From an uncultured Eubacteriales bacterium (GTDB lineage Bacteria; Bacillota; Clostridia; Oscillospirales; Oscillospiraceae), in the NCBI GenBank assembly GCA_900543625.1, contig UQSF01000001.1, positions 79,916 to 143,915 on the forward strand: DNA of 64,000 bases, in the 5' to 3' direction. The notes beneath the pieces were generated by a model. That model did not search any database, was not told the origin of the DNA, and saw only the letters and a list, made by a program, of their open reading frames with translations. Position 1 is the first letter of the stretch, and every line of letters begins with the position of its first letter. Shown piece by piece: positions 2,749-63,711 of the stretch. The position numbers were made by a program, and so were the translations under genes.

Positions 2749-3702
2749 ATGATCTGTCCAAAATGCGGCGCGCAGCTCTCTGACAGTGCCGTCATCTGCC
2801 GCGCCTGCGGTGCGATGCTTCCCGAGCATGCGCTCCCCTCGCAGCAGCCCTGCCGGCCGACGCAGCAGCCTGCGGGCAATGCCGCGCAGAATGTCTCCGA
2901 TACTCCGCGCACGTGCGCGCAATGCGGCGCTCCGCTTGAAGACGGTATGCGTTTTTGCACCAACTGCGGCGCGCCCGTTCCCGAGCGGCCCGACCCGGCG
3001 CAGTCCGCGCCGCCCCGGCAGGACACGGCCGCTTCCTTTATTCCGGGCGTCTGCCCGCATTGCGGCAGCCGCCTGAACCCCGGTGCGCGTTTTTGCACCG
3101 TCTGCGGCACGCGCGTACCCGAAGCGCCACAGGGCCAGACCGGCTGGTATGCGTCCGCGCCCGGCGGTGCGGTCTCCTCGCCGGAGATCGGCGCCAAGCA
3201 CAAGCCGAAAAAGCTGCTCATCGGTCTGCTGTGCGGCTTTGCCGCACTGGTCGTGATCGCGGCGGTCCTCATCGGCCTCTTTGCCGCGCACGGCGGCAGC
3301 CACGGTACGACCGGAAACACGGAGGTGGACCAGCTCATCGAGCGCTACTTCACGTATTTTGAAAACGACGATATCAGCGGCATGAACAAGATCTTCCTGC
3401 CGGAGGCGGTCGCCTTCATGCGGGATGATGACGACGGTCTGCTCACCGTTGAGGAGGCGATCGAAGAGCTCGACGACTGGTACAGCGACTATGGGCGAAC
3501 GATCGATGACTATGATATCTATGATTCCGACCGGCTCGATGAAGAGGATCTGACCCAGCTGGAGTGGGCGCTGGATGTGCGCATCGACGACAACCTTGTC
3601 GTCGCCTGTGACGTGACGTATGCAGGCGGCGCCGACGAGGATTTCTACTTTGAGTTCGTGCAGGTCAGCGGTCAGTGGTATCTGCTGTTTGCCATGGACT
3701 GA
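2749..3702 (+). CDS. membrane protein with three N-terminal zinc-ribbon (CxxC..CxxC) motifs, one TM helix and an acidic C-terminal domain
   Basis: ATG 2749 with AAAGAGG RBS; three CPxCG / CxxCG pairs, then hydrophobic LLIGLLCGFAALVVIAAVLIGLF, then a D/E-rich tail. Confidence 0.6.
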   Translation: MICPKCGAQLSDSAVICRACGAMLPEHALPSQQPCRPTQQPAGNAAQNVSDTPRTCAQCGAPLEDGMRFCTNCGAPVPERPDPAQSAPPRQDTAASFIPGVCPHCGSRLNPGARFCTVCGTRVPEAPQGQTGWYASAPGGAVSSPEIGAKHKPKKLLIGLLCGFAALVVIAAVLIGLFAAHGGSHGTTGNTEVDQLIERYFTYFENDDISGMNKIFLPEAVAFMRDDDDGLLTVEEAIEELDDWYSDYGRTIDDYDIYDSDRLDEEDLTQLEWALDVRIDDNLVVACDVTYAGGADEDFYFEFVQVSGQWYLLFAMD

Positions 3703-3712
3703 CCCCCAAAAT

Positions 3713-3752
3713 AACACCGCCCCCGGCAGCTTCGGCTGCCGGGGGCGGTGTT
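3713..3752. terminator. perfect GC hairpin (upstream copy of duplicated terminator core CCCCGGCAGCTTCGGCTGCCGGGG)
   Basis: AACACCGCCCCCGGCAGC-TTCG-GCTGCCGGGGGCGGTGTT; same core repeated at 3957-3980. Confidence 0.6.
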
Positions 3753-3950
3753 AGACTGTCAAAAAGTATTACTTTTTGACACGGGGATTTGCGGCCTGAC
3801 TGCAGCGCACGCGCCGCTCGCCAAAAGCGAACGGCGCGCACGTTTGCAGGCCGAGCAGTATTTTCTCAGCCGCACATGTCGCCTGAGAAAATGATCGGAC
3901 TTTCTTTCGCCGCTGCGGCGGCGAAACTCTACGAGGTTTTTGACAAGCTG
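3753..3950 (+). repeat. copy 1 of ~200-bp hairpin-rich intergenic repeat family (TGTCAAAAAG-palindrome element)
   Basis: starts AGACTGTCAAAAAGTATTACTTTTTGACA, ends TTTTTGACAAGCTG; conserved internal hairpins shared with copies at 37703, 43256, 51801, 63475. Confidence 0.85.
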
Positions 3951-3952
3951 AT

Positions 3953-3990
3953 ACGTCCCCGGCAGCTTCGGCTGCCGGGGACGTTTTTTT
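3953..3990. terminator. rho-independent terminator (downstream copy of duplicated hairpin) followed by T7 run
   Basis: ACGTCCCCGGCAGC-TTCG-GCTGCCGGGGACGT then TTTTTTT; sits between convergent genes. Confidence 0.7.
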
Positions 3991-26176: not shown

Positions 26177-26604
26177 TGCTGATGCCGAAAAGAGTGAAGT
26201 ACCGCAGAGTGCAGCGCGGTCGTATGACCGGCAAGGCCCTGCGCGGCAATAAGGTGACCTATGGCGATTTCGGCCTGCAGGCGCAGGAGCCGGCCTGGAT
26301 CACCTCCAACCAGATCGAGGCGGCCCGTGTCGCCATGACCCGTTACACCAAGCGCGGCGGTCAGGTCTGGATCAAGATCTTCCCCGACAAGCCGGTCACG
26401 CAGAAGCCGGCCGAGACCCGCATGGGTTCCGGTAAAGGTTCTCCTGAGTACTGGGTTGCCGTCGTGAAGCCCGGCAGAGTTCTGTTTGAGATTGCTGGCG
26501 TGTCGGAAGAGGCTGCCCGTGAGGCGCTGCGTCTGGCCAGCCACAAGCTTCCCTGCAAGACGAAGATCGTCAAGAAGGAAGAGACTGAGATTGGTGGTGA
26601 ATAA
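26176..26604 (+). CDS. rplP: 50S ribosomal protein L16
   Basis: conserved sequence. Confidence 0.95.
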
Positions 26605-26605
26605 G

Positions 26606-26800
26606 ATGAAAGCTAGTGAAATTCGCTCCATGTCCGCCGCTGAGCTGGAAAGCAAGCTGGTCGAACTGAAGAAGGACCTGTTCATGCTCCGTATGCAGCA
26701 CGCTACCAATCATCTTGACAACCCCGTTAAGATTTCTGCTGTGCGTCGCGACATTGCCCGAGTCAAAACCGTGCTCCGCGAAAAGCAGCTCGAGCAGTGA
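26606..26800 (+). CDS. rpmC: 50S ribosomal protein L29
   Basis: 64 aa starting [10 protein letters not shown], inside a longer track ORF. Confidence 0.9.
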
Positions 26801-26814
26801 GGAGGTAAGTGAGA

Positions 26815-27078
26815 ATGAACGAAATGAGAACGACTTCCCGCAAGACCCGCGTCGGCAAAGTGGTGTCCGACAAAATGGACAAGACCATCGTCGTCATCGT
26901 GGAGGACCACGTTGCGCACAAGGTTTATAAAAAGATCATCGGCCAGACCTATCGCCTGAAGGCACACGACGAGAACAACGAGTGCCATGTCGGTGATATC
27001 GTCCGCGTGATGGAGACCCGCCCCCTGTCCAAGGACAAGAGATGGCGCGTGGTCGAGATCGTTGAAAAGGCGAAGTAA
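26815..27078 (+). CDS. rpsQ: 30S ribosomal protein S17
   Basis: conserved sequence; ATG 26815 after GGAGG. Confidence 0.9.
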
Positions 27079-27090
27079 GGAGGCAACAAC

Positions 27091-27462
27091 ATGATTCAGC
27101 AGGAAAGTTATCTGAAGGTTGCCGACAATACCGGCGCCAAGGAAATCAAGTGCATCCGCGTTCTCGGCGGATCCAAGCGTAAATACGCCAGCATCGGCGA
27201 CGTGATCGTCGCTTCCGTGCGCAAGGCAGCTCCGGGCGGCTCCGTCAAGAAGGGCGACGTCGTCAAGGCTGTTGTTGTCCGCACCGCGAAGCCGGTCCGC
27301 CGCGCGGACGGCACCTATGTGCGTTTCGATGAGAACGCCGCCGTCCTGATCAACGGCGAGGATAAGAACCCCCGCGGCACCCGTATCTTTGGGCCCGTCG
27401 CCCGTGAGCTCCGCGACAGTGACTTCACGAAGATCCTGTCTCTGGCTCCCGAAGTTATTTGA
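27091..27462 (+). CDS. rplN: 50S ribosomal protein L14
   Basis: conserved sequence. Confidence 0.95.
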
Positions 27463-27476
27463 GGAGGGCGCAGAAC

Positions 27477-27782
27477 ATGAACATCAAAAAAGACGATAAA
27501 GTCGTTGTCCTGTCCGGTAAGAACAAGGGCAAGGAAGGCAAAGTCCTGTCTGCTGACCCGAAGGGCGGCAAGGTCATCGTGGAGGGCGTGAACGTCGCCA
27601 CGAAGCACCAGAAGCCGAAAAACCAGCAGGATCAGGGCGGCATCATCAAGACCGAAACCCCGATCTATGCCTGCAAGGTCATGGTCGTCTGCCCGAAGTG
27701 CGGCAAGCCGACCCGCGTTGCGCACAAGATCACGGACGGCAAGAAGGCCCGCATCTGCAAGAAGTGCGGCGCCGAACTGTAA
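27477..27782 (+). CDS. rplX: 50S ribosomal protein L24 (KOW) with C-terminal Cys4 zinc-ribbon
   Basis: [22 protein letters not shown] start; C-terminus CPKCG...CKKCG. Confidence 0.9.
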
Positions 27783-27800
27783 AGGAGGGAGCAACGAACT

Positions 27801-28355
27801 ATGGCAACAATGCCTTCTATGAAGAAGAAGTATGTGGAGGAAGTCGCTCCCGCTCTGATGACGAAGTTCCAGTACGAGAGCGTTATGCAGATCCCGAAGA
27901 TCGAGAAGATCGTCGTCAGCGTCGGCTGCGGCGACTGCAAGGATAACGCCAAGGCGCTCGACGCCGTCATCAAGGACATCACCGCGATCACCGGTCAGAA
28001 GGCCGTCGCGACCGTCGCCAAGAAGAGCGTCGCGAACTTCAAGCTGCGTGAGGGTATGCACGTCGGCGTGAAGGTCACGCTGCGTCAGGACCGTATGTGG
28101 GAGTTCCTGGACCGCCTGTTTAACATCGCGCTGCCCCGTGTCCGCGACTTCCGCGGCATTTCGGCCGACGCGTTTGACGGCCGCGGCAACTACAGCCTCG
28201 GCCTCAAGGAGCAGATCATCTTCCCCGAGATCGAGTACGATAAGATCGAGAAGCTCCGCGGCATGAATATCGCCATCATCACCACCGCCAAGACCGACGA
28301 GGAAGCACGCGAGCTGCTCAAGCTCATGGGCGCCCCGTTCGTCACCAAAGCATAA
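27801..28355 (+). CDS. rplE: 50S ribosomal protein L5
   Basis: conserved sequence. Confidence 0.95.
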
Positions 28356-28370
28356 GGGAGGAGCGACACA

Positions 28371-28556
28371 ATGGCTAAGAAATCTATGATCCTCAAGCAG
28401 CAGGCGCCTGCGAAGTTCTCCACCCGCCAGTACAACCGCTGCAAGATCTGCGGCCGTCCCCACGCTTACCTGCGCAACTACGGCATCTGCCGTATCTGCT
28501 TCCGTGAGCTGGCGTACAAGGGCCAGATCCCCGGCGTCCGCAAAGCCAGCTGGTAA
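28371..28556 (+). CDS. rpsN: 30S ribosomal protein S14, zinc-binding type Z (61 aa)
   Basis: CKICGR...CRICFR Cys4. Confidence 0.95.
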
Positions 28557-29075
28557 AATTCTGCCGTTTGGCATTGTGAGCTGTGCTTGCTGTATACCAG
28601 ATACAGCTGCGCACAGCGCCCTTCGCCAACCAAAAGAATTTCGCCCGGGGCGGGATAACGGCTGCGCGGTGCACACCGCCTGACGAAAAATGCTCGCCCA
28701 GCGCTGAACATTCCGTTCAGCCCTAACTTCCGTAAGTTCGCCCCTGCAGCCGCAGCTGGATCTGCGGCTGTCGGTGCGCACTGAAATACGGTGCCGGTGC
28801 TTATGATCTGAGTTCCGGTGCCGCACCCCACACTGCCTGTGCGTTTGACCCGGCGCGCAGGTATGCAGTCACCGCTTTTGTGCCGTCCGGCACCGCGGCC
28901 GTGCCGCTGCCATCCGGCGGCGACATGAAAATGGACCGCGCGTCACAAAAGCAAGCTTTTGCCCTTCGCTGAAAGGGCAGGGATGACGAAAGGCCGCAGG
29001 GAATCATGTATTCATGCGGAACCTCGCCGCCCAAACCGTATCATCGGTAACTTCTAACTAAGGAGGAAACAAACA
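28557..29075 (+). other. 519-bp non-coding, hairpin-rich insert inside the spc operon between rpsN and rpsH
   Basis: no credible ORF on either strand; multiple perfect hairpins (GCTGTGC..GCACAGC, GCTGAAC..GTTCAGC, CAGCCGCAG..CTGCGGCTG, AAAAGCAAGCTTTT, GCCCTTCGCTGAAAGGGC). Confidence 0.5.
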
Positions 29076-37305: not shown

Positions 37306-37647
37306 ATGCCCGGAACAAGGAAACTCGGTAAGACCACCGATCAGCGCAAGGCGATGCTCCGTCAGCAGGTCACGGATCTGCTCGACATGGGCCGCATGGA
37401 GACGACCGTCTTCCGCGCAAAAGAGATCGCGCCTCTGGCCGAGAAAATGATTACCCTTGGCAAGAAGAAGGACATGGCTGCCTATCGTCAGGCGCTGGCC
37501 TTCATCACCCGCGAGGATGTTGCCAAGAAGGTGTTCGAGGAAGTCGCCCCGAAGTATGCCGACCGCAACGGCGGCTACACCCGCATCACCCGCATCGGCA
37601 CCCGCCGCGGCGATGCGGCCGAGATGGCTGTCATCGAGCTCGTGTAA
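37306..37647 (+). CDS. rplQ: 50S ribosomal protein L17
   Basis: conserved sequence. Confidence 0.95.
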
Positions 37648-37669: not shown

Positions 37670-37702
37670 AATGCACCGACCGCTCTGCGGCCGGTGCATT
37701 TT
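37670..37702. terminator. terminator hairpin after rplQ (upstream copy; near-identical copy at 37905-37937)
   Basis: AATGCACCGACCGC-TCT-GCGGCCGGTGCATTTT; second copy differs only in loop (TTT). Confidence 0.65.
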
Positions 37703-37904
37703 CAGCTTGTCCAAAAACCTCGTAGAGTTTCGCTGCCGCCGCGGCGAAAGAAAGCCCAACCATTTTCTCCGGCGACATGTGCGGCGGAGAAAATACTTCT
37801 CGGCCTGCAAACGTGCGCGTTGTCCGCCTCCGGCGGACAGCGCGTGCGCTGCAGTCAGGCCGCAAATCCATTTGTCAAAAAAGTAGTACTTTTTTGACAG
37901 CCCC
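37703..37904 (-). repeat. copy 2 of the ~200-bp repeat family (reverse orientation)
   Basis: CAGCTTGTCCAAAAACC... ...TTTGTCAAAAAAGTAGTACTTTTTTGACAG; flanked by the duplicated rplQ terminator hairpin. Confidence 0.85.
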
Positions 37905-38009
37905 GAATGCACCGACCGCTTTGCGGCCGGTGCATTTTCTTGTTTTACACACAGGCATGCCCTGTGGTATAATAATCAATCGACAGACAGACAACAAGGA
38001 GGGACGTGT

Positions 38010-43220: not shown

Positions 43221-43254
43221 CAGCCCCGCTGCCGGGAAACCGGCAGCGGGGCTG
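43221..43254 (+). terminator. terminator hairpin after the binding-protein gene
   Basis: CAGCCCCGCTGCCGG-GAAA-CCGGCAGCGGGGCTG. Confidence 0.6.
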
Positions 43255-43255
43255 A

Positions 43256-43452
43256 CAGCTTGTCAAAAGCCTCGCAGAGTTTCGCCGCCGGAGCGGCGAA
43301 AGAAAGACCAATCATTTTCTTCGGCGACATGCGCGTCGAAGAAAATACTTCTCGGCCTGCAAACGTGCGCGCCGTCCGCCTTGAGCGGACGGCGCGTGCG
43401 ATGCAGTCAGGCCGCAAACCCCTTTGTCAAAAAGTAATACTTTTTGACAGTC
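43256..43452 (-). repeat. copy 3 of the ~200-bp repeat family (reverse orientation)
   Basis: shared internal hairpins; its TGTCAAAAAG end overlaps the TGA stop of the small membrane protein gene; no second flanking hairpin copy at this locus. Confidence 0.85.
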
Positions 43453-43705
43453 ACAGAAAAACGAAAAACAGCATCACGATCAGGTACGCGAACGCGAGCG
43501 TCATCGGCGCGAGTGCGAGTGCGGCGGTCAGCCGCCAGTCGTCCTCGCGCTCGACCGTGCCTTCATAGACCGGCTCCGCCATGGCGGCGAGTGAGCCGTG
43601 CAGATAGCTGCGGTAGAGCTTCAAAAACCGCTTTCCGTCGCGGCGGCCGGTGCTGTAGGCCGACTGCTCCGGTGTGCGGGGCTGCAGGGCGTGGTGTGTG
43701 CGCAT
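43451..43705 (-). CDS. small C-terminally membrane-anchored protein (84 aa)
   Basis: strong GAGGAGGAA RBS + ATG 43705; C-terminal TM LALAPMTLAFAYLIVMLFFVFL; immediately downstream of the PP2C gene. Confidence 0.55.
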   Translation of the reverse strand: MRTHHALQPRTPEQSAYSTGRRDGKRFLKLYRSYLHGSLAAMAEPVYEGTVEREDDWRLTAALALAPMTLAFAYLIVMLFFVFL

Positions 43706-43777
43706 CCGGTGTTCCTCCTCATGCTCGAAAGGTGTCGAATCGTTCAAAAGCTATTATACGCATTATGCCGCCGCGCG

Positions 43778-44971
43778 TCAACCGGGGAAGCGCTCGGGTG
43801 CAGACGTTGCCTCCGGCGACGGTGTTGGCGTCGGCTCCGCGCTCGGCTCGGGCGTGGGCTCCGGCTCCGGTTCGGGCGTCGGCATCGGGGGCAGGATCAC
43901 CTGCGGCGGGGCGTTCGGCGTGGGTCTCGGCGTGGGCGTGACCGTCTGCACCGGTGTGGGCGCAGGAGCGGGGGGCTTGCGCGGGATGCTGCCGACTGCG
44001 ATCCACAGCGCGGCGACTACGGCACAGAGCACCGCCAGGATCACGGAGACGGTGAGTACCCACTCGCGGCGGCGCGCACGCGCCTGCTTTTTGCGCTGCG
44101 TCTCCTGCTCGGCGATGCGCTCGGCCGAGACTTCGAACCGCCGCGTCTGCGACAGTTCCTCGACCGGCGGCTGCGGCAGGGGAACGGCGGTCTCGGGGTC
44201 GAGCGCCGTGACCTCGATGAGCACGAGTGTGATGTTGTCGCCCGGCCCGGCGTCGAGCGCCTGCGCCATGAGTGCCTGCCCCAGCTCCGGCAGCGGCATA
44301 TCCGCGCCGAGCACCGCCTGCAGGCGGCTGTCGCTGAGCTTTCCGGTCAGCCCGTCGGTGCACAGCAGCAGCCGGTCGCCGACGGCGAGCGGCACACCGG
44401 CCGCAAAGTATGGCATGAGCCGCTGGCGCGCGCCGAGCATGCCCAGATACTGCGTGAGCACGTGCCGGTCCGGACTGTCGTCCGCGTCATCCGCGTCGCC
44501 GGCGGCACCGGCATCGAGCCGCTCCTGATACTTGGTGTGGTCGCGCGAGATGCGCTGCAGCGCGCCGCCGCGCTGCAGATAGATGCGGCTGTCGCCGACG
44601 TTGCAGCAATAGGCGTGGTTTCCGGTCAGGTGCACGGTCGCAGCGGTCGAGCCGCTGACCTGACCGCTGGCCGCGATCATGTCGCACACGGCGACGTTTG
44701 CGCGCCGGAAGAAATCGAGCGCGTCAAACGGCTCATCGCTGCTGCATCGGTGCAGTGTCTGCGCGCACAAAAGCGCTGCCTGCTCACCGTTTGCCTCGCC
44801 GCCCATGCCGTCGAACACGCCGTAGATCAGCCGCTTGCCCTCCTGCTCGGCGGCCGCCTCGGCCACGGGGACGGCGGCATCGCGCTTGAACGTGCCGTTG
44901 CAGTAGTAGTTGTCCTCATTATTATCCCGGCCGGAGCCGATGTTTGTCTGCGCGTAACACAGCACACGCAT
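43778..44971 (-). CDS. PP2C-family Ser/Thr phosphatase with C-terminal TM helix and Pro-rich extracellular tail
   Basis: GVFDGMGG and DGLT PP2C motifs; TM VLTVSVILAVLCAVVAALWIAV; PTPxP repeats; GGGAGGAA RBS. Confidence 0.8.
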   Translation of the reverse strand: MRVLCYAQTNIGSGRDNNEDNYYCNGTFKRDAAVPVAEAAAEQEGKRLIYGVFDGMGGEANGEQAALLCAQTLHRCSSDEPFDALDFFRRANVAVCDMIAASGQVSGSTAATVHLTGNHAYCCNVGDSRIYLQRGGALQRISRDHTKYQERLDAGAAGDADDADDSPDRHVLTQYLGMLGARQRLMPYFAAGVPLAVGDRLLLCTDGLTGKLSDSRLQAVLGADMPLPELGQALMAQALDAGPGDNITLVLIEVTALDPETAVPLPQPPVEELSQTRRFEVSAERIAEQETQRKKQARARRREWVLTVSVILAVLCAVVAALWIAVGSIPRKPPAPAPTPVQTVTPTPRPTPNAPPQVILPPMPTPEPEPEPTPEPSAEPTPTPSPEATSAPERFPG

Positions 44972-46271: not shown

Positions 46272-48251
46272 ATGCACTGCACTGTGAAAATGACCGAGGA
46301 CCTGTACTGGGTCGGTGCGTCCGACCGCCGTCTGGCGCTGTTTGAGAGCGTGTATCCCATCCCGCGCGGCGTGTCGTACAACGCCTATGTCCTGCTCGAC
46401 GAGAAGACCGTCCTGCTCGACACGGTGGATCAGTCCGTCGCCGGTCAGTTCTTTGAAAATCTCACCCATGTGCTCGGCGGCCGTCCGCTGGACTACATCG
46501 TCGTGCACCACATGGAGCCGGACCACGCCAAGACGCTCGAGGAGACCGTGCGCCGTTATCCCGAGGCGAAGATCATCTGCAACGCGAAGATCCGCGACAT
46601 GATCCGCAACTACTTCACCTTTGACATCGACAGCCGCGCCATCCTCATGGCCGAGGGCGGCACCTACTGCTTCGGCAAGCACACGTTTGCCTACGTCATG
46701 GCGCCGATGGTGCACTGGCCGGAGGTCATGGTCAGCTTTGACACCACGACCGGCACGCTCTTTTCCGCCGACGCCTTCGGCACGTTCGGCGCGCTCAATG
46801 GCAACCTCTATGCCGATGAGTATGACTTTGAGCACGACTGGCTGCCCGATGCCCGCCGCTACTACACGAACATCGTCGGCAAGTACGGCACGCAGGTGCA
46901 GGCGCTGCTCAAGAAGGCAGCCACGCTGGATATCCGCATGATCTGCCCGCTGCACGGTCCGGTCTGGCGCAAGAACATCGGCTGGTTCGTCGATAAGTAC
47001 AGCAAGTGGAGCTCCTACACGCCCGAGCAGGACGGCAGCGTGCTCATCGCTTACTCCTCCGTCTACGGTCACACCGAAAACGCGGCGCAGGTGCTCGCGA
47101 CCATGCTGGCCGAGCGCGGCGTGCGCAACATCGCCATGTACGACGTCTCCGTCACGCACCCGAGCTATGTCGTGGCCGAGGCCTTCCGCTGCAGCCACCT
47201 CGTGTTCGCGTCCACGACGTATAACGCCGGCATCTTCTGCAACATGGAGACGGCGCTGCTCGACATCGCGGCGCACAACCTCCAGAACCGCACCATCGCC
47301 CTGATCGAAAACGGCTCCTGGGCGCCGACCGCCGGCAAGCTCATGCGCGGCATCCTCTCCAAGCTCAAGGACGTGACCATCCTCAATGAGACGCTCACCA
47401 TCAAGTCCTCGCTCAAGGACGATCAGCTCGCAGCGCTCGCCGAGATCGCGGACGCGCTCGTGGCCTCCATGCCGAAGCCGCGCCCGATCGTCAACGAAGG
47501 CAAGCAGAATCCCGCCGCGCTCTTCAAGTTCCAGTACGGCCTGTTTGCACTCTCCGCCCGCGAGGGTGACAAGGACAACGCCTGCATCATCAACACCGCC
47601 ATCCAGATGGCCAACAAGCCCGAGCGCATCTCCATCTCGGTCATCAAGGCCAACCACACCTGCGGCATGATCGAGCGCACCGGCGTCTTTAACCTCTCGC
47701 TGCTGACGAAGGAAGTGCCGTTTGCCTTCTTCCAGCACTTCGGCTTCCAGTCCGGCGCGGAGGTGGACAAGTTCGCAGACTGGAGCGACTGCGCCCGCAG
47801 CGACAACGGTCTGTATTACATCAACCGCTACACGAACGCCATGTTCTCCTGCCGCGTCGTCGAGAGCTATGATCAGGGCAGCCACCGGCTGTTCATCGCC
47901 GAGATCACGGAGTCCAAGCTCTTCAGCAACGACGAGACCGTGACCTACGACTACTACCGCAGCCACATCAAGCCCGCTCCGCCGAAGCTCGCCCCCGCCG
48001 AGAAGGCGACCTGGGTCTGCTCCGTGTGCGGCTATGTGTACGAGGGCGAGACGCTCCCGGCCGATTTCATCTGCCCGCTGTGCAAGCACCCGGCGTCCGA
48101 CTTCGTCAAGCACGAGGCCAAGCCCGCGGAAAAGCGCGTCGGCTTTGTGTGCACCGTCTGCGGCTACGTGTACGAGGGCGCGGACATGCCGGATGACTTC
48201 ATCTGCCCGCTGTGCCACCACCCGAAGTCCGATTTCAAACCGCTTACGTAA
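46272..48251 (+). CDS. multidomain flavodiiron protein: FprA core (MBL diiron + flavodoxin) + flavin-reductase-like domain + two rubredoxin domains
   Basis: diiron HHMEPDH motif; two C-terminal CxxCG...CPxC rubredoxin repeats (WVCSVCGYVYEG / FVCTVCGYVYEG). Confidence 0.85.
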   Translation: MHCTVKMTEDLYWVGASDRRLALFESVYPIPRGVSYNAYVLLDEKTVLLDTVDQSVAGQFFENLTHVLGGRPLDYIVVHHMEPDHAKTLEETVRRYPEAKIICNAKIRDMIRNYFTFDIDSRAILMAEGGTYCFGKHTFAYVMAPMVHWPEVMVSFDTTTGTLFSADAFGTFGALNGNLYADEYDFEHDWLPDARRYYTNIVGKYGTQVQALLKKAATLDIRMICPLHGPVWRKNIGWFVDKYSKWSSYTPEQDGSVLIAYSSVYGHTENAAQVLATMLAERGVRNIAMYDVSVTHPSYVVAEAFRCSHLVFASTTYNAGIFCNMETALLDIAAHNLQNRTIALIENGSWAPTAGKLMRGILSKLKDVTILNETLTIKSSLKDDQLAALAEIADALVASMPKPRPIVNEGKQNPAALFKFQYGLFALSAREGDKDNACIINTAIQMANKPERISISVIKANHTCGMIERTGVFNLSLLTKEVPFAFFQHFGFQSGAEVDKFADWSDCARSDNGLYYINRYTNAMFSCRVVESYDQGSHRLFIAEITESKLFSNDETVTYDYYRSHIKPAPPKLAPAEKATWVCSVCGYVYEGETLPADFICPLCKHPASDFVKHEAKPAEKRVGFVCTVCGYVYEGADMPDDFICPLCHHPKSDFKPLT

Positions 48252-51744: not shown

Positions 51745-51800
51745 ACCGCATTTTATAACGAAAAAGAGAGCTTGTCACGAATCGTGACAAGCTCTCTTTT

Positions 51801-51974
51801 CAGTTTACCAAAGAACCTCGTAGCCTTTCGCCGCCGCAGCGGCGAAAGAAAGTCCGATCATTTTCTTCGGCGACATGTGCGGCGAAGAAAATACCGCTCA
51901 GGCTGCAAGTGTGGAATTTGTGCGCGCAGCAGACTGCAATCCCTTTGTCAAAAAGTATTACTTTTTGACAGTCT
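51801..51974 (-). repeat. copy 4 of the repeat family (reverse orientation, shorter: lacks the central variable hairpin)
   Basis: flanked by hairpins AGAGAGCTTGTCACGAATCGTGACAAGCTCTCT (51765-51797) and AGAGAGCTTGTGACAAGCTCTCT (51977-51999). Confidence 0.8.
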
Positions 51975-52015
51975 CAAGAGAGCTTGTGACAAGCTCTCTT
52001 TTTTGCGCCCTGCGC

Positions 52016-63438: not shown

Positions 63439-63472
63439 TACGGCGCCGGACGGAGATCCCGTCCGGCGCCGT
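63439..63472. terminator. terminator hairpin (upstream copy; identical 35-bp copy at 63673-63707)
   Basis: TACGGCGCCGGACGG-AGATC-CCGTCCGGCGCCGTG present identically on both sides of repeat copy 5. Confidence 0.7.
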
Positions 63473-63474
63473 GG

Positions 63475-63672
63475 AGACTGTCAAAAAGTAATACTTTTTG
63501 ACAAAGGAGTTTGCGGCCTGACTGCAGCGCACGCGCCGTCCGCCCAAGGCAGACGGCGCGCACGTTTGCAGGCCGAGAAGTATTTTCTTCGCCGCACATG
63601 TCGCCGAAGAAAATGATCGGACTTTCTTTCGCCGCTCCGGCGGCGAAACTCTACGAGGTTTTTGGACAAGCT
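63475..63672 (+). repeat. copy 5 of the ~200-bp repeat family, flanked by a perfect 35-bp duplication
   Basis: GAGACTGTCAAAAAGTAATACTTTTTGACA... ...GGTTTTTGGACAAGCTG. Confidence 0.85.
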
Positions 63673-63711
63673 GTACGGCGCCGGACGGAGATCCCGTCCG
63701 GCGCCGTGCGT

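Follow-up and report, generated by a model that had tools for sequence, protein, structure and literature searches.

In the 64,000 nucleotides of DNA analysed here (hereafter, the window), a non-coding element lies between two identical copies of a 35-nt hairpin, and the same element recurs elsewhere in the window beside hairpins of other sequences. How did one hairpin come to stand on both sides of the element, and why does it differ from locus to locus while the element stays constant? An earlier reading made from the letters of the window (the sequence-only reading) had taken the hairpins to be target-site duplications of an unusual kind. We found that the element is mobile and multicopy, that insertion duplicates a single pre-existing hairpin symmetrically about its dyad, that the targets lack a common consensus and that one site has been used recurrently.

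Five copies of a non-coding element in the window

The window has a G+C content of 62.5%, and an Rfam scan at the gathering score placed an L10 leader, a Clostridia-type S10 leader and a tRNA cluster in it. The window is ~94% identical to a contig from an uncultured Oscillospiraceae MAG. A non-coding element of ~200 bp occurs five times in the window, and its left-end palindrome has four occurrences there, compared with none in 100 shuffles. A locus-specific duplicated palindrome of 30-39 bp brackets four of the five copies (copies 1, 2, 4 and 5). The features are as follows, with the strand given for the elements.

3718-3747, left palindrome of copy 1 (30 nt; core 3721-3744), with one compensatory pair unlike the right copy
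3752-3950, plus strand, element copy 1, subfamily A (alignment; nhmmer 3751-3950, E 6e-71)
3954-3983, right palindrome of copy 1, followed by a T-run
37670-37702, palindrome at the GACAAGCTG end of copy 2, downstream of an rplQ-like ORF (37306-37647)
37703-37904, minus strand, element copy 2, subfamily A (alignment, nhmmer)
37906-37938, second palindrome of copy 2, 32/33 identical, with one loop mismatch
43221-43254, single hairpin of copy 3, on the GACAAGCTG side only
43256-43454, minus strand, element copy 3, with its GTGAC end abutting or overlapping a minus-strand ORF (43451-43747) at the stop codon
51762-51800, long-loop palindrome of copy 4, from direct reading of the sequence (core of the sequence-only reading, 51765-51797)
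51801-51975, minus strand, element copy 4, subfamily B, its hairpin H2 shortened by a deletion of ~20 nt
51976-52004, other palindrome of copy 4, with a 10-nt loop deletion (core of the sequence-only reading, 51977-51999)
63439-63473, left duplication of copy 5 (35 nt), whose minus strand scores as a terminator
63474-63673, plus strand, element copy 5, subfamily A, absent at the orthologous sites L046-L049
63674-63708, right duplication of copy 5 (35 nt)

The flanking repeats that had been quoted for these copies are all present, but their right-hand coordinates had been set one base early at copy 5 (63673-63707) and at copy 2 (37905-37937). The duplication at copy 5, TACGGCGCCGGACGGAGATCCCGTCCGGCGCCGTG, is 35/35 identical on the left and the right. 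At copy 1, a 24-nt core is exact at 3721-3744 and 3957-3980, and the 30-nt hairpins differ by one compensatory C-G to T-A change and a symmetric one-pair indel. Copy 3, which the sequence-only reading left unmentioned at this point, lacks a hairpin on its GTGAC side. Two loci are orthologous to copy 4: L013, cut short where the fetched sequence begins, and L063, which holds a 47-bp mini. A promoter scan found no promoter in copy 5.

Apart from the element, two in-frame tandem repeats of ~90 nt (48015-48236 and 2896-3122) were observed in the window; they are rich in Cys-x-x-Cys codons, rubredoxin- or zinc-ribbon-like, and 71-80% identical.

Anatomy and fold of the element

The full element measures 195-203 bp, starts with GAGACTGTCAAAAAGTAnTACTTTTTGACA, finishes with GGTTTTTGACAAGCTG and has no space for a gene. 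Both ends carry the terminal inverted repeat consensus nAGnYTGTCRAAAA. The inverted repeat is short and imperfect, with GAGACTGTCAAAAA facing CAGCTTGTC(C)AAAAA at a match of ~11/14. The interior contains TGT...ACA motifs and three TGTCAAAAA motifs; the true ends, as fixed by the empty site, are GAGAC...AGCTG, so that TGT and ACA sit 5 nt inward.

On either strand, the element folds far beyond shuffled sequence (z = -5.4 and -7.1), and each element contains four internal hairpins (H1-H4). In an alignment of 54 site representatives, 17 of the 41 predicted pairs in three hairpins showed double compensatory changes, a count that exceeds the number of independent events because the aligned copies share descent. 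H1 varies by A-U to G-C swaps. Subfamilies A and B are distinguished by the two alternative versions of H2, which has further swaps inside a subfamily, and one pair of H3 is U-A in 33 sequences and C-G in 19. H4 lies outside the consensus fold and has three different palindromic versions, as judged from the alignment by eye. Even so, the hairpins have clearly been maintained among the lineages that propagated. No Rfam family, group II introns included, was found over the element at the gathering score, and a scan by E-value returned sub-threshold matches at chance level only. A literature search with the terminal sequence of the element retrieved unrelated primers only.

Distribution in genomes, metagenomes and viral contigs

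An internal-motif scan of one genome per species detected 37 copies in three MAGs, most of them with a locus-specific hairpin on both sides. Gut metagenomes contributed at least 120 loci, and the cultured species Vescimonas fastidiosa carries copies on its 860-kb replicon pMM35_01. Six IMG/VR viral contigs contain the element. In the IMG/VR loci L176, L178 and L180, the element and its duplicated hairpins lie between genes of predicted viral contigs. Viral carriage is a possible route between hosts. For the statistics given below, we pooled 123 full copies in fetched DNA from the related MAGs, gut metagenomes, V. fastidiosa and viral contigs, and grouped them into 56 insertion-site clusters.

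Two observations concern V. fastidiosa NZ_AP023416.1 in particular. In L053 (100-150 kb) and L052 (50-100 kb), five of the eight copies finish at ...GCGAGGCTTTT and lack both the GACAnGCTG terminus and the right hairpin, a recurrent truncated form. The species also has long intergenic arrays in which short GC-rich palindromes of several families recur, GGGCCGATGTAGGCATCGGCCC and GGGCGGGGTTCTACCCCGCCC among them; these are REP/BIME-like and unrelated to the element (L050:3140-3960; L053:700-1060 and 26490-29070; L054:1880-2090 and 44260-44500).

The duplication follows the target palindrome

A flush duplication was present at 40 of the 56 sites, with a length of 23-37 bp and a median of 31; measuring these wider copies bore out the long duplications proposed from the window. 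Chance is excluded by the recurrence of a flush 23-37-nt direct repeat at 40/56 independent sites, together with the excess of the left-end palindrome over shuffled sequence. The general statement that copies are bracketed by duplications is accordingly correct for four of the five window copies and for these 40 sites, but not for 16 of the 56 sites, including copy 3, where no flush duplication was found.

At each duplicated site, we rebuilt the presumed target and measured how far the duplication was centred from the palindrome dyad. The mean offset was 0.25 nt (standard deviation 0.81), and the offset was 1 nt or less at 33 of the 40 sites. The cuts lie anywhere between a few bases beyond the stem base and a few bases within the stem, and the length of the duplication varies with the hairpin at each site. 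The hairpin sequence differs by locus, the element is constant across loci, and no motif beyond palindromy was common to the duplicated sequences as judged by eye. The targets are GC-rich palindromes that closely follow stop codons; most have an A-run ahead of them, a T-run behind them, or both. The orientation of the element relative to the T-run showed no significant bias (11 versus 6, p = 0.33). The best explanation is that the element targets DNA structure and not sequence. One of the two routes proposed by the sequence-only reading, in which a hairpin or cruciform is cut at its base, fits these data: the duplication follows the palindrome, shares its centre of symmetry and varies between 23 and 37 bp.

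The same measurements bear on another way of making long duplications, in which the target stays in B-form and a transposase dimer of the sort that makes long duplications (IS1202 group, TnsB-like) grips both arms of the palindrome and cuts with an unusually long stagger. The IS1202 group makes duplications of 16-28 bp (PMC10132070), and the TGT...ACA motifs and the three TGTCAAAAA motifs of the element are as expected for multiple transposase binding sites. However, the stagger here spans 23-37 bp and follows each hairpin, the sequences of the arms are unrelated between loci, and TGT and ACA lie 5 nt inside the ends defined by the empty site; moreover, the long-duplication group of IS1202 has no detected conserved target and offers few independent examples. 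We consider this explanation unlikely, although it keeps an appreciable share of the probability.

Empty sites and independent insertions

Orthologues of the copy-5 locus were located in public assemblies through homologues of the upstream deacetylase gene. The element is present at this locus in strains whose deacetylase proteins are 88-99% identical. In L046-L049, which represent two lineages (proteins 85% and 80% identical, DNA flanks 93-94% identical), the intergenic region is only 52-53 bp long and contains one hairpin and no element. A single 34-nt stretch of L046 aligns to both the left and the right window copies of the copy-5 duplication. In two other comparisons, L001 was filled and L014 empty, with a single hairpin when empty, a 24-bp duplication and a cut on each side 3 bp into the extended stem, and L004 was filled and L032 empty, the left hairpin copy of the filled site being reduced to a 6-nt remnant. 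In all three filled/empty comparisons (L046-L049, L014 and L032), the empty site had a single hairpin and lacked the element, as the sequence-only reading had predicted for relatives, and its interpretation of the locus-specific flanks as target-site duplications is upheld. That the flanking repeats are true target-site duplications is supported by this comparison of sequences.

These empty sites could in principle also have arisen by precise deletion between the direct repeats of 24-35 bp. Recombination between the repeats restores the empty site exactly, and emptiness alone is therefore no proof that a site was never occupied. Under either history, the two hairpins derive from one. We found no adjacent twin hairpins without an element between them, that is, no excision footprint and no tandem pair of the kind that would speak against duplication by insertion, among 4362 hairpins in 1.48 Mb, a sample biased to occupied loci.

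The empty sites also bear on the idea that the repeats came first, either as tandem hairpins already in place or as the two terminators of a resident small-RNA gene that was spread by segmental duplication. The strong fold of the element (z = -5.4, -7.1) and its covariation are in keeping with an RNA gene, and some copies, such as that in L007, have two different hairpins. Empty sites with exactly one hairpin contradict this idea, however; the hairpin is locus-specific while the element is constant, tandem hairpins without the element were not found among the 4362 hairpins (1.48 Mb), and the element matches no Rfam family. Pre-existing repeats are thus extremely improbable.

The copy-5 site also yielded a second filled state. 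In L037/L038, an element of subfamily B occupies exactly the site of copy 5, with its own hairpin variant (ACAGCGCC...GGCGCTGT) doubled around it. The flanks of L037/L038 are 95-96% identical to those of the empty genomes and 91-92% identical to those of the window. On these identities, the simplest reading is that the copy-5 hairpin was hit by two independent insertions. The sequence-only reading had further taken the clean duplication at copy 5 as a sign of a younger insertion; this argument is weak, since the insertion is common to strains whose flanks are only 97-98% identical.

Fate of the hairpins after insertion

Copies with one hairpin, such as copy 3, are best explained by secondary loss of the other, because hairpin loss is seen in both comparable cases. 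One is the reduced left hairpin of L004, compared with L032; in the other, L001:4257-4455 compared with L014 at a second pair of loci, the right hairpin copy has gone in L014 through a deletion between two AGCA tetranucleotides. Where the left hairpin is missing, the co-oriented gene upstream has a stop codon that overlaps or directly abuts the first bases of the element, (G)TGA/GAAA/TAAAA (window 43451-43453; L004:1575; L032:1851; L012:6122). The element in such copies separates the gene from its only terminator.

Hairpins can also be multiplied further. L020:6999-7750 contains three head-to-tail units, each of a 37-bp hairpin and a 201-bp element, which are 97-99% identical and in the same orientation; this array could reflect repeated insertion into a duplicated hairpin or unequal crossing-over. 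In L030:5501-5960, one hairpin occurs three times, and its copies separate a full element, a truncated one and a segment of ~105 bp that is unrelated to the element. The ~105-bp segment lies between hairpin copies 1 and 2, and a truncated left MITE end follows copy 3; a similar arrangement was seen at L120:2722-2894. The ~105-bp segment is possibly another element with the same insertion mode. From the tandem array of L020 and the three hairpin copies of L030, it appears that new hairpins serve again as targets. The element itself also shrinks in place: minis of 45-50 bp, natural minimal derivatives reduced to the left palindrome plus the right terminus, lie between duplicated hairpins at L055:1272-1440, L144, L159 and L063 (the copy-4 locus).

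The two hairpin copies of a site diverge, yet each remains a good hairpin, with compensatory pairs at copy 1 and at L150. At ~4-5 sites, including L005, L019, L053:45336-45585 and L154, the loops of the two hairpin copies are reverse complements of each other. In L025, an orthologue of L019, the loops are direct, whereas in L019 they are flipped, which indicates that a loop flip can postdate insertion. In the metagenomic loci L124 and L102, each hairpin copy has one stem mismatch, and the arms are mutually reverse-complementary with the loop orientation unchanged; either two transitions struck a single base pair, or the pattern records how the copies were templated.

Such changes also bear on a copy-in process, the alternative offered by the sequence-only reading; here the element would be copied into a replication fork stalled at the hairpin by template switching, and the hairpin copied twice. 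Template switching at quasi-palindromes yields symmetric, arm-mirrored changes. Loop inversions in ~4-5 of 40 pairs, symmetric arm-mirrored differences between paired hairpin copies and the lack of excision footprints among the 4362 hairpins (1.48 Mb) are all compatible with it. Against it stand the precise, identical junctions and defined termini at more than 40 sites, which are typical of enzymatic end recognition, the retention of both termini in the minis, and the L019/L025 orthologues, according to which the loop flip can follow insertion. Template switching therefore seems to us quite improbable.

Search for an autonomous partner

The 1.48 Mb of fetched sequence contained no longer element with the same ends, and a census of the TGTCAAAAA motif did not reveal an autonomous partner. 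We also searched for pairs of similar hairpins 40-4000 bp apart, and obtained only the ~200-bp element and one tandem nhaC duplication in Vescimonas. In the latter (L053:24005-27025), a gene for an nhaC-family antiporter is tandemly duplicated together with its terminator, and there is no IS; it was the only recognisable unit bracketed by similar hairpins more than 1 kb apart, the others appearing to be chance or element-internal. Inverted TGTCRRAAA pairs 0.6-4 kb apart with flanking repeats were not found in the 1.48 Mb. With an approximate IS30 InsI query, tblastn against the 1.48 Mb revealed no IS30-type reading frame (best E-value 1.4).

Searches with the ends of the element gave similar results. 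The left-end 26-mer had zero matches in viral sequences, and the right end had only chance matches there, within coding sequence. Among the matches listed for the left-end 19-mer in metagenomes, there were only MITE copies, internal-deletion minis and two chance matches; one of these two, L072, was inside a prophage ORF. The first 200 kb of the 860-kb V. fastidiosa replicon contained no annotated transposase, and a lone end-like motif beside a lexA-like gene. Because MAGs tend to lose multicopy IS at contig breaks, the missing transposase is weak evidence. Membership in the IS30 or IS1202 family cannot be claimed without a transposase.

A model of insertion at hairpins

We consider it fairly probable that the element is a non-autonomous, MITE-like transposon of gut Oscillospiraceae, mobilised by a DDE transposase in trans through symmetric strand transfer at the base of an extruded cruciform, with duplication of the whole hairpin. 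A cruciform-type DDE explanation is the one usually given to IS1630. We infer the cruciform target, the DDE chemistry and the supply of the enzyme in trans. The element would enter GC-rich palindromes, which for the most part are intrinsic terminators at gene 3' ends. A DDE-type transposase acting in trans would most likely dock on the extruded cruciform, in which the attacked phosphates, 23-37 bp apart in linear DNA, would be neighbours across the four-way junction. The two strand transfers would hit both target strands symmetrically about the dyad, at the stem base or a few bases from it, and repair of the two single-stranded gaps would copy the whole hairpin on each side, giving a duplication of 23-37 bp that tracks the hairpin. 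Each fresh hairpin copy could then be a target again, and later deletions or loop flips would lose or alter hairpins.

Several points weigh against this model, namely that no transposase or longer element was found in the 1.48 Mb or among the left-end matches listed for metagenomes, that the terminal repeats are short and imperfect (~11/14), that 16 of 56 sites lack a flush duplication and that ~4-5 loops are flipped. In addition, the covariation in all four hairpins hints at recognition of a folded single-stranded DNA or RNA, which plain DDE cut-and-paste does not need. An undescribed system might instead read structure at both partners, with a four-way junction or hairpin as the target and four folded, covarying hairpins (single-stranded DNA or RNA) in the element; its enzyme would be new to transposition or of a new family, and not of the IS30 or IS1202 type. 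To such a system we assign a low probability.

Relation to known systems

IS1630, an IS30-family element of Mycoplasma fermentans, duplicates inverted repeats of 19-26 bp (PMC2853133), and its duplications in strain M64 are 16, 23, 25 and 26 bp (PMC3317919). As in IS1630, a target palindrome is duplicated here, over 23-37 bp and centred on the dyad. IS1630 is, however, an autonomous IS of 1.2-1.4 kb; its terminal repeats are 27 bp long, its transposase is of the IS30 type and its host is an AT-rich mollicute, whereas the present element is 200 bp long and non-coding, has imperfect ends of ~14 bp and four conserved hairpins, makes duplications of up to 37 bp, and occurs in GC-rich gut Clostridia and viral contigs. 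The IS1202 group (IS1202 family, TnsB-like transposase) makes 16-28-bp duplications without a conserved target, and ends of the family are 5'-TGT...ACA-3' with terminal repeats of 24-26 bp (PMC10132070). The likeness is in the long duplications, whose ranges overlap, those here extending to 37 bp; the differences are that TGT...ACA does not form the outer ends here and that palindromic targets are unreported for the IS1202 group. The assertion that the duplications are far longer than any of known IS does not survive a comparison with IS1630 (19-26 bp; PMC3317919, PMC2853133) and the IS1202 group (16-28 bp; PMC10132070).

Bacterial MITEs such as Correia, RUP and Nezha are small, non-coding, multicopy and intergenic, with terminal inverted repeats, stable predicted folds and filled/empty polymorphism (PMC3184786). 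The element resembles them in size, absence of coding capacity, copy number, target duplication and filled/empty sites. These MITEs make short, fixed duplications (TA for Correia) and usually form a single long stem from their terminal repeats, whereas the element here has four local hairpins and duplicates a whole terminator. No cognate autonomous IS with its ends was found in the 1.48 Mb or among the left-end matches listed for metagenomes and viral sequences. In the literature searched, we found no description of a MITE with whole-hairpin duplications.

Other elements are known to insert at or near hairpins. Group IIC introns insert after terminators. IS1397, IS621 and IS1594 target REP sequences, and extragenic palindromes have been viewed as safe sites (PMC3184786). 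All of these recognise a repeated consensus or insert beside a hairpin, and none duplicates the whole hairpin.

A site-specific integrase and IS110-type RNA-guided insertion were rejected because the target sequences differ. IS200/IS605 or REP/RAYT-type movement was rejected on the long duplications and the lack of a shared target motif here, IS200/IS605 making no duplications.

The products of CRISPR adaptation have a formal similarity to our loci. Cas1-Cas2 and casposon integrases place DNA between two palindromic copies of ~30 bp via staggered attack at the borders. By analogy, a Cas1-type integrase might attack both borders of the palindrome as in the acquisition of CRISPR spacers or the insertion of casposons, which would likewise leave a palindromic repeat of ~30 bp doubled around the inserted DNA; the similarity is one of analogy only. 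Cas1-Cas2 requires Cas1, a fixed repeat and a leader, but no cas1 or casposon genes and no such context were seen in the loci inspected here, and the targets lack a leader-like context. Casposon duplications, moreover, have a fixed length of ~14-15 bp. The site preference of a casposase is described in PMC5137440. An integrase of this type is, in our judgement, very unlikely, and symmetric strand transfer at the base of a cruciform by a DDE transposase is the explanation we favour.

Significance

Insertion that measures a structure is poorly understood; within the literature examined, it is represented only by a handful of IS1630 copies in mycoplasma. The present family adds more than 40 independent, datable insertions with matching empty sites in abundant human-gut bacteria, and makes the rule testable: the cuts are symmetric about the dyad, and the duplication is the hairpin. 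The element also illustrates a near-harmless lifestyle, in which it lands in terminators and one is regenerated on each side. In doing so, it multiplies terminator hairpins, which then evolve by compensatory changes. For annotation, the element accounts for doubled terminators and many contig breaks in Oscillospiraceae assemblies. This is a rare kind of transposition with precedents, and the family is of use chiefly for the large natural sample of structure-directed insertions that it provides.
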